Positions 53,396-55,616 of a stretch of DNA of 64,000 nt are shown one piece after another. The DNA is from Waddliaceae bacterium (GTDB taxonomy: Bacteria; Chlamydiota; Chlamydiia; Chlamydiales; Waddliaceae), in contig CAVRUH010000005.1 in assembly GCA_963724325.1 (NCBI GenBank), positions 224,001-288,000 of the forward strand. The letters run 5' to 3'. Within the stretch, counting starts at the first letter, position 1; each line of letters begins with the position of its first letter. The notes below the pieces were generated by a model that saw only the letters and a list, made by a program, of their open reading frames with translations, was not told where the DNA came from and ran no database searches. A program made the translations under genes and the position numbers.

Positions 53396-53608
53396 ATGGC
53401 AAATTCATTAAGAGAAGCAGTTAGAAAATGTTGTAGCACTGATCCACAAAAAGTTGTGAAATGTCTTGAGGCATGTAACATTCCACTAACTCCTGAAGAT
53501 AAAGCATGTTTTGCTCAGTGCCGTCTTGAAAAATTTTCTGATTCAAAACTCGAAGCATGCTTTAGTCCAAAAGTATGCGGTATGTTAGGAATTAAAAATC
53601 CTAAGTAA
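53396..53608 (+). CDS. 70-aa Cys-rich peptide (8 Cys): candidate RiPP precursor or metal/redox peptide
   Basis: SD GGAGG at 53386-53390, ATG 53396; MANSLREAVRKCCSTDPQKVVKCLEACNIPLTPEDKACFAQCRLEKFSDSKLEACFSPKVCGMLGIKNPK. Confidence 0.75.
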   Translation: MANSLREAVRKCCSTDPQKVVKCLEACNIPLTPEDKACFAQCRLEKFSDSKLEACFSPKVCGMLGIKNPK

Positions 53609-53621
53609 TCTAGAATCTATT

Positions 53622-55616
53622 TTATGAAAGGCTGTTCTTCGCAGCCTTTCTCAGAGCATTTACCCTTAGTAAGAACTTAACGATGACCACAGATGGCAAA
53701 AGCCAGCTGAGGTGAACGGTTGCAATCCCTAAGATCGTTTCAGGCAATACCATTCTTAAATAGTACTGGAATTCATAAGCTATAAATACTCCTGCTACCA
53801 GAAAGATAAAACATATGAGCCAATAGATAAGTTCATTCGAAAATTTTGGCCGAGATAACCATTTGTAGGCATCAACATCAAGATATTGTTGATTCAACGC
53901 TTCTTTACAAATTCCATAACCATCGCCATCAAACAAGGGATTCAAATTCTTAAATACACCGTAATATAATAAAAATGCCAATAGCCAAAAAAAGATCGCA
54001 AGTTGCGGTAACGGTATGATCCATGCCAGAATGCCTGCTATTCCTCCCATAAACAAATCCGCAAATGGACCAGCTATGCTGACACAAATGCGAGATGTAC
54101 GGTCCTCTAACCACATATCGGAAGTATCGACATATGCAATTAAACCAACCCAGGACAATATAACCCCGCCGTGATGTACTTCTCGACCATGAGATTTAGT
54201 TGCATATCCATGAGCAGCCTCGTGTATAACTACTGAAAATAGATAAACTAATAGTAGAGAAAAAAGAAGAGGAGCAACTGTAAAATTGGATTGAAGAATA
54301 GTCATCCCCTGAGCAAAAAATAATGACCACATGACGATCCCCAAAAGAGAAATACCCAATGTGATGATAAAACCTATAGGAGTAAACAAATATTGTACTA
54401 CTTTGCTGTAACTGTTGTTAAATTTGTGATCGATGTTATTAAATGTAATTTGAATATGACTCCATTTCCATATCAGGTCTTGAATACGCACTCTCAATGG
54501 TAACTCTTCTTTTGTCTCAATGGTACTAACATGGTGAATTTCCGGCATAAGAACAAAACCGGCATCTGCCAAATTAAATAAGGTGTCTGCAATAGCATCA
54601 GGAGCAAATATTTTGTGTAACTTATACATGTCTACAGTAAGCTCTTCTATCGTTCTCGTACCATCCAAAAGCTCCCATATATACCATCCTTCCTGAGACA
54701 GTTTAAAATACTTCCGATTAACAGGATCCTTAAGAATAGTCATCTTTTGGTCATCGTCTAATTGTCTTTCATAATGAAGGGTCCTCGCAAGGCGTATGGG
54801 ACGACTTCTTTGCACAACAAGGGTCATCATGGAAGCATGAATGTCGTGGTGTTCAATTAAGGCATCCAATTGTTTGCGTTTAAGAACAAGCAAAACACAT
54901 TTCATAAGTGTCCTAGCATTGGCATTTCGAGGGGAATCTGTTAAAATTGCCATTTCGCCGCAAATCATCGGCGGTTCTAATAGCGCTAGCCTTTTTCCAG
55001 TGCTATTTGTAATTTCTACCTGCCCATAACGGACAAGATAGCACTCTTCACCTTGATCACCTTCATTAAATAATGTGGTCCCACCTTCTACAATTCGTTC
55101 TTGAATCTGATCAGCAAGCCAAAGTATTTTTTCTTCAGGTAATGCTTCGAAAGGTTCCACTCTTTTAATAAAATTCATTCGCAATAATTTTTCGCCCAAT
55201 TGCTGCGTACTAGAATTAAATTCAGGATGTTTTTGAAGAAAATAATAAAAAGTTTCTAAATCCCATCCGATTAAAACGGTCTCTGTCAATGTTGTCAGCG
55301 TAGCTGTCCTCAGACCCGTACGGCTGAAAAATCCAAGTCGACTGAGTCCTATTGCATCTCCTTCTTTCAAGAGGATCACAGGAATTAGTTTAATTTGATC
55401 TCCTTCTTGTATCTCATGAGCGACTTCAACTTTGCCTTGAGCTATCAGATAGATCGCATCGACAATTTTTCCCTGTGATATGATCACTTGATTTTGAGGA
55501 AAGAGCTTTTCAAAAGAAAGCTTCACTAGTTCATCAATTTCTTCGGTCTTTAACTGACTGAAAAATGGATGGCTTGATACTAAAGATTTCTTATTTTCGG
55601 AACTCACTGAAGTCAT
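53622..55616 (-). CDS. Tandem cNMP-binding + PqqD/RRE + site-2 (M50) metalloprotease fusion
   Basis: Two cNMP domains (second with CGEMAIL..PRNA); RRE ILKDPVNRKYFKLSQEGWYIWELLDGTRTIEEL...LADAGFV; HEAAH, AGP, NLNPLFDGDG; multiple TM segments. Confidence 0.85.
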   Translation of the reverse strand: MTSVSSENKKSLVSSHPFFSQLKTEEIDELVKLSFEKLFPQNQVIISQGKIVDAIYLIAQGKVEVAHEIQEGDQIKLIPVILLKEGDAIGLSRLGFFSRTGLRTATLTTLTETVLIGWDLETFYYFLQKHPEFNSSTQQLGEKLLRMNFIKRVEPFEALPEEKILWLADQIQERIVEGGTTLFNEGDQGEECYLVRYGQVEITNSTGKRLALLEPPMICGEMAILTDSPRNANARTLMKCVLLVLKRKQLDALIEHHDIHASMMTLVVQRSRPIRLARTLHYERQLDDDQKMTILKDPVNRKYFKLSQEGWYIWELLDGTRTIEELTVDMYKLHKIFAPDAIADTLFNLADAGFVLMPEIHHVSTIETKEELPLRVRIQDLIWKWSHIQITFNNIDHKFNNSYSKVVQYLFTPIGFIITLGISLLGIVMWSLFFAQGMTILQSNFTVAPLLFSLLLVYLFSVVIHEAAHGYATKSHGREVHHGGVILSWVGLIAYVDTSDMWLEDRTSRICVSIAGPFADLFMGGIAGILAWIIPLPQLAIFFWLLAFLLYYGVFKNLNPLFDGDGYGICKEALNQQYLDVDAYKWLSRPKFSNELIYWLICFIFLVAGVFIAYEFQYYLRMVLPETILGIATVHLSWLLPSVVIVKFLLRVNALRKAAKNSLS

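Follow-up and report, generated by a model that had tools for sequence, protein, structure and literature searches.

The locus examined here raises the question of what a 70-residue, cysteine-rich open reading frame (ORF) does beside a membrane protease that carries cyclic nucleotide sensor domains. It lies in a stretch of 64,000 nucleotides (nt) from a Waddliaceae bacterium (assembly GCA_963724325.1, contig CAVRUH010000005.1, positions 224,001 to 288,000), hereafter the window, in which the ORF faces a gene for a fusion of two cyclic nucleotide-binding (cNMP) domains, a PqqD-like RRE (recognition element of RiPPs, peptides made on ribosomes and modified after translation) and an M50, site-2 type, intramembrane metalloprotease. 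A first-pass annotation of the sequence had proposed that the peptide is a Cys-rich substrate of the RRE, possibly modified by the products of neighboring genes. Comparison with related loci gave the following results: (i) protease and small ORF form a conserved two-gene unit, (ii) the small protein is, judged by sequence, a divergent member of the NHLP/Os1348 clan, and (iii) its cysteines appear in the alignment as a directional gain within one lineage and not as a conserved RiPP core. With roughly even confidence, the two genes are read here as a likely cAMP-gated peptide-clipping module of the daptide MpaP type, a reading drawn from sequence comparison and analogy.

Pairing and Distribution of the Two Genes

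The 169 loci compared comprised the best 80 of 179 protease homologs found in genomes, the best 80 of 109 found in metagenomes, and nine from relatives; the fetched flanks measured at most 6 kb and often less. The host assembly (G000; 2.37 Mb, 84.6% complete) carries the protease gene and the small ORF in single copy each. A same-genus relative (G001, 97% complete) contributed locus L008. After removal of 10 duplicates 74 loci had a cNMP-bearing RRE-M50 protein, four forms of about 1,140 residues being set aside.

An NHLP-type ORF was present within 3 kb in 54/70 of the cNMP-fusion loci and in 35 of the 39 that were well flanked (upstream flanks of 2 kb or more and downstream flanks of 1 kb or more, with the window counted in), a count that is partly circular, the profile having been grown on the same loci. 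The third profile iteration was used, since the fourth drifted into long actinobacterial ORFs. As an independent check on the pairing, 48 of 61 aligned small ORFs matched NF038399 at E ≤ 1e-6, and the profile had a single match in the whole genome G000. Among the four well-flanked loci without an NHLP-type match, L002 has copies elsewhere in its genome and L088 a neighboring Nif11-type ORF. Several small ORFs (2–3, with differing tails) occurred in 9/39 well-flanked loci. The same profile also matched 28/63 loci whose RRE-M50 protein is without cNMP domains; the small-ORF association is thus not exclusive to the cNMP fusions.

The window protease belongs to a clade of 12 members (SH-aLRT 100) that mixes Chlamydiota and Gammaproteobacteria; the tree is a quick version with SH-aLRT values and no bootstrap, and since the loci include kin no statistic is claimed for the pairing. 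A small ORF with a KVLG motif lies 70–100 nt upstream of the protease gene and on the same strand in L001, L003, L004/L019, L005, L006, L007, and L008 (7 genomes). L002 is without an adjacent copy and L009 starts within the protease gene; their genomes carry two copies and one copy elsewhere, respectively. The KVLG motif was found in 10 of 27,199 reading-frame segments, all of them beside proteases of the close group. In the window the two genes are convergent, with 13 nt between their stop codons.

Among 400 scored genomes of the phylum the cNMP-RRE-M50 fusion was matched in four, at full length in G000 and G001, truncated ahead of the M50 domain in G117, and as a contig-edge fragment in G258; the small ORF was found in G000 and G001 only. 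The G117 form (L172:1456-2571) has 371 residues and stops before the M50 domain, and no small ORF was found in that genome. In the order of the relative G410 the subfamily was found in G410 alone (1/63 genomes scored). Both G410 and G411 encode one further cNMP-RRE-M50 paralog (L225:2298-4565 and L226:5918-8229, respectively), which is adjoined by its own, distinct NHLP/Nif11-type small ORF.

With a genuine RRE in the protease and homologous small ORFs accompanying it from genome to genome, the small protein is a plausible RRE/M50 substrate, as the first-pass annotation had suggested; the Cys-rich core that it had assumed found no support. Its expectation of similar Cys peptides next to protease homologs held for the small ORFs themselves, which adjoin related proteases, and failed for the cysteines, which are not shared.

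The Protease

The fusion of two cNMP domains, a PqqD-like RRE and an intact site-2 protease was confirmed by Pfam, by the topology of an AlphaFold2 model and by invariant catalytic residues. The two cNMP domains were matched in Pfam at E 1.7e-32, and the top fold matches of these sensor domains are regulatory domains of cyclic nucleotide-dependent protein kinases (PKA/PKG). The pocket of domain B is kept in the other proteases (G220 and E221 in 52/52, R230 in 49/52). In domain A the usual Glu, canonical in most of the distant members shown, is replaced in 12/12 clade members, with Gly90 and Arg103 kept.

For the full-length protein the PqqD and M50 matches in Pfam were weak (PF02163, 24.1 bits, below the cut-off of 27.2). 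The isolated RRE passed the PqqD cut-off (PF05402; 27 vs. 23.4 bits), and an RRE match at E ≤ 0.01 was obtained in 43/43 family members. In the AlphaFold2 model, built from a 53-sequence alignment (mean predicted local distance difference test, pLDDT, 91.6) and showing a multi-helix membrane domain, the RRE consists of strands 280–285, 291–297, and 302–306 followed by helices 308–315, 323–334, and 339–351; with the cut-off exceeded and a fitting topology the earlier RRE call stands. Comparison of the RRE profile with solved lasso RREs gave weak matches (E 0.016–0.16) that ranked beneath designed beta-trefoils, and the ESM Atlas leads for the RRE were all below 0.9.

Residues H465, E466, H469, P560, D565, and G566 are invariant across the 53 aligned proteases, the zinc ligands and the catalytic Glu among them, and the top solved-structure match of the M50 profile was the site-2 protease (S2P) MJ0392 (3B4R, E 1.2e-7). 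The window protease deviates from the family at two positions (E563D and R580D). Short contigs from sequencing runs matched seven pieces of the protease gene with zero differences.

The Small Protein

The small ORF is considered a real gene because homologous ORFs adjoin related proteases, and not for its number of cysteines; at least eight Cys occurred in 20 of the 2051 ATG-started frames of 60–100 residues in G000. With the peptide as the sole query, ORFs adjoining related proteases were matched at E 3e-10 to 4e-5, the next match being at E 2.1. A profile built from six Cys-poor homologs, with the window peptide left out, had the window protein among its matches at E 4e-18, followed by Os1348-type ORFs with E values from 5e-6. 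The full hidden Markov model search returned 36 proteins, 34 of which align as a single subfamily; the other two (P0062 and P0064) are long proteins and were left out as spurious. Common to the subfamily are a body of helices and the motif FSDxQLxxRFNxKVLGxLGI, together with a tail that varies and is rich in S, G, K, and Q. Other approaches were less informative: a word-based search of 5.8 billion proteins with the peptide alone retrieved only itself, an ESM Atlas search gave no usable match, and a fold search with the peptide model (helical, pLDDT 71) gave nothing clear (best Z 4.4). The codon-usage score of the ORF was flat and uninformative, and a promoter scan stayed at chance level (10 vs. 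9.3 expected).

The assignment to the NHLP/Os1348 clan was reached through the subfamily and its more distant counterparts. The subfamily profile aligned with the Os1348-type partner of a distant protease (hhalign 92.9%, E 3.7e-7), such distant partners exceeded the NF038399 cut-off (51–60 vs. 40 bits) in 7/7 cases tested, and the top solved match of a wide small-ORF alignment was 6LK7 (E 2.7e-9). The closest subfamily members reached 12–20 bits (cut-off 40); the window protein gave no match to NF038399 at E ≤ 1 and none to any NCBIfam model. The Gly-Gly motif is missing in the window protein, which has Ser-Pro (S57-P58) at that register, followed by the conserved hydrophobic segment; the register was taken from the NHLP/Nif11 motif table (Table 3) in PMC2887384.

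Proposed Mechanism

In the clipping mechanism proposed here, the helical body and the F47-x4-L52 motif of the small protein would dock on the RRE, and the conserved hydrophobic segment K59–I66 would enter the M50 active site. A cut near P58/K59 would then set free a short peptide with a hydrophobic head, probably without modification, or else inactivate the small protein, and a cyclic nucleotide (cAMP or related) in a cNMP domain would gate the cleavage. Precedents exist for two of these steps: MpaP, an RRE-fused intramembrane peptidase, removes daptide leaders (PMC10036551), and the L(X)4L motif of a Nif11 leader contacts an RRE (bioRxiv 10.64898/2026.10.04.756588). Class III cyclases were present in 5/5 genomes checked: G000 has four, and each of the other four genomes has one or more. 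In G407 two copies of the small gene (L175 and L176 on C61) flank genes for a receiver protein, an anti-sigma-like ATPase, and a receiver-adenylate/guanylate cyclase, the protease gene lying elsewhere. Separately, four tandem genes for proteins of about 1,073 residues, each with a class III cyclase domain, were noted at G000:C7:390994-401330.

Several points weigh against this mechanism. Binding, cleavage, nucleotide binding, and expression are all predictions from sequence, and with Gly-Gly missing the putative cut site is placed by register alone. Most members of the wider family have only 1–10 residues after the cut register (with a median of 2 where a prenyltransferase-like gene adjoins and of 5 elsewhere), and in the close clade, where 11–58 residues follow from K59, the tail past residue 66 is of low complexity and ill suited to carry a specific signal. 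The usual Glu is missing from domain A. The loss of a near-invariant Arg (R55C) and Gly (G42C), together with E563D and R580D in the protease, could mean that this copy is degenerate. The cyclase survey covered solely module-bearing genomes, with no control set. Furthermore, in G407 the protease shares its contig with an orthologous reductase-P450 pair (51–53% identity) at a distance of about 17.5 kb, and G411 carries a reductase-P450 pair (28–34% identity) on a different contig from its protease. A complex prediction with the full protease and the small protein scored 0.00 (mark 0.32) and was counted for neither side.

Rather unlikely in our view, the small protein could instead bind the RRE-M50 protease as a pseudosubstrate inhibitor or adaptor that is displaced by cAMP, the protease then cutting another membrane protein. 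This would agree with the nearly leader-only state of most family members, with the conserved docking part and the variable, low-complexity tail, and with the fold match of the tandem cNMP domains to PKA regulatory subunits. PKA regulatory subunits act by release of inhibition. However, 2–3 small ORFs with differing tails stand side by side in the nine loci mentioned above, like precursor arrays, the close clade shows no other conserved neighbor suited as a substrate, and characterized RRE-M50 enzymes cut leader-bearing partners (PMC10036551; the M50 enzymes TglG, TmoG, and EpeP in PMC10885120).

Comparison with Known Systems

The closest known counterparts of the module are the daptide peptidases MpaP/DapP (NF041824; PMC10036551), which likewise have an N-terminal RRE fused to an intramembrane M50 domain, with short ORFs adjoining. 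NF041824 was the best NCBIfam match of the window protease (E 4.9e-23 over residues 281–583). The window protease differs in its two extra cNMP domains and in the lack of conserved daptide-type modifying enzymes nearby, and its partner, a folded protein of the NHLP type, has Lys as its last residue, whereas a daptide has a short leader and a C-terminal Thr, which is invariant. Membership in the daptides was rejected, the protease scoring 81.9 bits against a cut-off of 300 and the small protein being without the terminal Thr.

The YydH/EpeP/LiaK epipeptide peptidases (NF058609) are also M50 peptide-processing enzymes, and the match of the window protease to them was weak (34.5 vs. 225 bits). 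Compared with epipeptide and pearlin systems the module has added cNMP domains, and neither a radical SAM epimerase nor a PEARL ligase is among its recurrent neighbors. TglG and TmoG clip a residue off the C-terminus of a scaffold peptide (PMC10885120), and the wider family, with its very short tails, is reminiscent of this.

With the Os1348 NHLP clan (NF038399; 6LK7; PMC7726476) the window subfamily has in common a homologous helical leader domain; the cluster of Os1348 itself, as described in PMC7726476, has GNAT, HEXXH, and SagB-type genes and not this protease. NHLP/Nif11 precursors (PMC2887384) have Gly-Gly and a hypervariable core rich in Cys, Ser, and Thr, both of which are missing in the window protein. 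The PalX/PalQ and ComX/ComQ systems (PMC10853753) combine an NHLP-type precursor with an isoprenoid-synthase-like prenyltransferase, an arrangement also seen in 20/74 cNMP-fusion loci (PF00348-like). PalX comes with a histidine kinase and a C-terminal Trp; the window ORF is without Trp, and no prenyltransferase gene is present in the window or in the close-clade loci.

A search of full-text literature (mostly non-subscription, supplements excluded) did not turn up any account of a cNMP-RRE-M50 fusion that is paired with an NHLP protein, and a term search for M50 or site-2 had no occurrence in PMC12710340, PMC7470986, and PMC7159879. The module can be placed among the RRE-M50 leader peptidases, to which it adds a nucleotide sensor and, in a single genome, an unexplained gain of cysteines.

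Variants in the Wider Family

To our knowledge, known RRE-M50 peptidases act as the final, unregulated step of modified-peptide pathways. Here, the protease is fused to cyclic nucleotide sensors and paired with a nearly core-less substrate candidate, and this across many phyla; if cleavage is cAMP-gated, the module would tie second-messenger signaling directly to peptide release or regulated proteolysis.

The only recurrent enzyme neighbor in the cNMP-fusion loci is the isoprenoid-synthase-like protein, which was counted in 12/39 well-flanked loci and in none of the close clade. The sole PF00348-like match in G000 is on another contig and looks like a housekeeping polyprenyl synthase. In the three-gene form (L010, L011, L013, L018, L023, L024, L030, L031, L038, L099, L116, L138, and others) one to three nearly leader-only Os1348-type ORFs stand with the isoprenoid-synthase-like enzyme and the protease, a candidate for a new prenylated-peptide pathway. 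Kept apart from this count are L032, L035, and L037, where the prenyltransferase position is taken by a protein of 300–340 residues without Pfam or NCBIfam match (L037 tested), which we presume from a motif to be acyltransferase-like. A strict trade-off between prenyltransferase and hydrophobic tail was discarded, as many loci have neither.

Further variants were observed in actinobacteria. In the small ORFs of L025, L026, and L027 the leader is followed by a hydrophobic segment and by long repeats of low complexity. In L058 and related Streptomyces and Catellatospora loci the RRE-M50 protein has an FHA domain in place of the cNMP domains, and long upstream frames hold an NHLP-like segment.

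Only tentatively do we suggest a widespread and as yet undescribed class of second-messenger-gated RiPP-type peptidases, in which cAMP would open the RRE-M50 protease to clip nearly leader-only NHLP proteins and would so convert a nucleotide signal inside the cell into the release of a peptide. Many lineages would prenylate these proteins, and Chlamydiota and Gammaproteobacteria would use the built-in hydrophobic segment; in the window member clipping would need both cAMP and a suitable thiol-redox or metal state. We take the Chlamydiota in question to be of the amoeba-symbiont type.

The Eight Cysteines

The description of the ORF as a 70-residue frame with a strong Shine-Dalgarno sequence, eight Cys (C12, 13, 23, 27, 38, 42, 55, and 61) and no Tyr, Trp, or His proved accurate. 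Against a genomic Cys content of 1.3% the binomial probability of such a count is 4e-6 (calculated post hoc). The other 33 subfamily members have 0–2 Cys each, five in 2,126 core residues and one in 824 residues of their tails. Seven of the eight Cys columns are without any Cys in the 33 homologs and the eighth has one; in the relatives these columns hold R, L/I, A, A, S, G (29/33), R (29/33), and L (29/33). The recurring xAC motifs to which attention had been drawn are not a family repeat, the columns of their Cys being mostly Ala, Ser, and Arg in the relatives. If the register S57-P58 stands for Gly-Gly, the leader-like part holds seven Cys and the remaining 12 residues hold one.

Departures from consensus lead to Cys in three of six cases in the window protein and in one of 107 in the other 33 members. 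The gain is recent in this lineage and dispensable for the function of the family, and makes the window member a natural case of directed Cys gain in a single protein. Most likely the cysteines would lock the leader fold, either by disulfides or in a metal-dependent way. Decoding of TGY as another residue was dismissed, since the residues that gave way to Cys are R, L, A, S, and G and since the Cys ligands in P450 and 2Fe-2S proteins are normal.

It is unlikely, though supported by several observations, that the module is conserved as such and this copy is decaying, or that its cysteines are drift or an assembly error and hence meaningless. The orientation is convergent here and upstream in the closest relatives, conserved R, G, and L are lost, rho and polA are broken near the window start, and the bases of the small ORF are covered by no contig among eight sequencing runs, hence without independent confirmation. 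Yet the frame, the Shine-Dalgarno sequence, and most of the motif are intact; the bias of the departures toward Cys, at residues of diverse chemistry, is unlike random decay or a single type of error; in five other proteins Cys is not generally more frequent than in the G407 orthologs; and the homolog P0043 has the same R-to-C change.

Flanking P450, Halogenase, and Bacillithiol Genes

Position between two P450 modules and next to bshB1-bshA was verified, all genes lying where they had been placed, and gave rise to the idea of a Cys-rich RiPP precursor on which the neighboring P450s or halogenases would act, or which would be S-bacillithiolated. This is very unlikely, despite the adjacency in the window and the P450 pairs of G407 and G411 described above. 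A P450 gene is in the flanks of only one of the 169 loci (L020, 25–27% identity) and a halogenase gene in none; the orthologous P450 module is present in 2/5 genomes and never adjacent to the protease, and the search of further relatives gave only a partial 28% match in G001 and none in G410. Each window P450 (modules at 47899-51306 and 55743-58437) is preceded by its own partner gene, which fuses two cNMP domains to a BFD-type 2Fe-2S domain and, in the first case, also to an FAD/NAD reductase, and has no RRE. A P450-modified RiPP was rejected for lack of Tyr, Trp, and His and of a co-conserved P450, and the position of most cysteines in the leader-like part argues in the same direction. No match to MNIO, SPASM, or YcaO was found in G000 (84.6% complete, as given above), and its PqqD match is the protease only.

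Nor did S-bacillithiolation find support as a part of the system. The gene bshA is distributed independently: it was matched in 20 of the 400 genomes of the phylum, is missing in the pair-bearing G001, and is present in 5/6 same-family genomes without a small-ORF match. No BshB or BshC homolog was found in the flanks of the 169 loci, and the BshA matches beyond the window locus are generic glycosyltransferases. Most likely the neighboring P450 and bacillithiol genes belong to systems of their own, and we read the P450 module and the protease as a shared cNMP-responsive gene set rather than a single pathway; the cNMP-cNMP-ferredoxin proteins could be cyclic-nucleotide-gated redox partners of the P450s.

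Least likely of all, and highly improbable, is that the ORF is mainly a metallothionein-like metal buffer placed by the protease incidentally, as eight Cys in 70 residues with one CC and two CxxxC pairs would allow, since the protein is homologous over its full length to Cys-free proteins tied to this protease, has a cysteine content unique to this member, is predicted to be helical, and has no Pfam or NCBIfam metallothionein match.

Gene Layout and Further Observations

Table 1. Sequence features of the two genes, with positions counted in the window.
Feature	Position	Strand	Remarks
Shine-Dalgarno GGAGG	53386..53390	+	5 nt upstream of the small-ORF ATG; from sequence
70-residue protein, divergent member of the NHLP/Os1348 clan by sequence	53396..53608	+	Helices 4-15, 17-26, 33-40, 49-55, 58-64 predicted
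Residues 47-58, F-x4-L-x2-(R>C)-F-S-P	53534..53569	+	Matches family motif L/F-S-D-x-x-L-x-x-R-x-S/N and NHLP/Nif11 pre-cleavage motif; putative RRE contact; putative cut register after P58
Residues 59-70, subfamily hydrophobic segment K-V-L-G-x-L-G-I (L>C here) and 4-residue tail	53570..53605	+	Putative released piece
664-residue cNMP-cNMP-RRE-M50 intramembrane metalloprotease	53622..55616	-	
cNMP domain A, about residues 20-130	55227..55559	-	Gly90 and Arg103 kept, Glu missing in this clade (G-L and 2-residue insertion); ligand uncertain
cNMP domain B, about residues 150-257	54846..55169	-	Canonical pocket G220-E221...R230
RRE (PqqD-like), residues 280-351	54564..54779	-	
M50 catalytic membrane domain, residues 385-600	53817..54464	-	H465-E466-xx-H469, VDTSDMW, NLNPxxxxDG (D565)

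Two further cNMP-cNMP-2Fe-2S genes are on contig C7 of G000 (L196:4499-6523 and L197:4953-6392), with no P450 gene adjoining. The bacillithiol genes bshC, bshA, and bshB1 occupy positions 44862-46151 and 51360-53175 of the window, bshC being flanked by two DUF4760 genes. The genes rho and polA (5386-9934) are fragmented, pointing to assembly errors of the indel type. The halves of a PEP-synthase/rifamycin-phosphotransferase-like enzyme are encoded by separate genes (38363-40042 and 43352-44200), between which lie a flavin halogenase-like gene and a metallophosphoesterase gene. A patatin-like phospholipase and an OTU-like cysteine protease, possibly host-directed, are encoded at 59887-61790.

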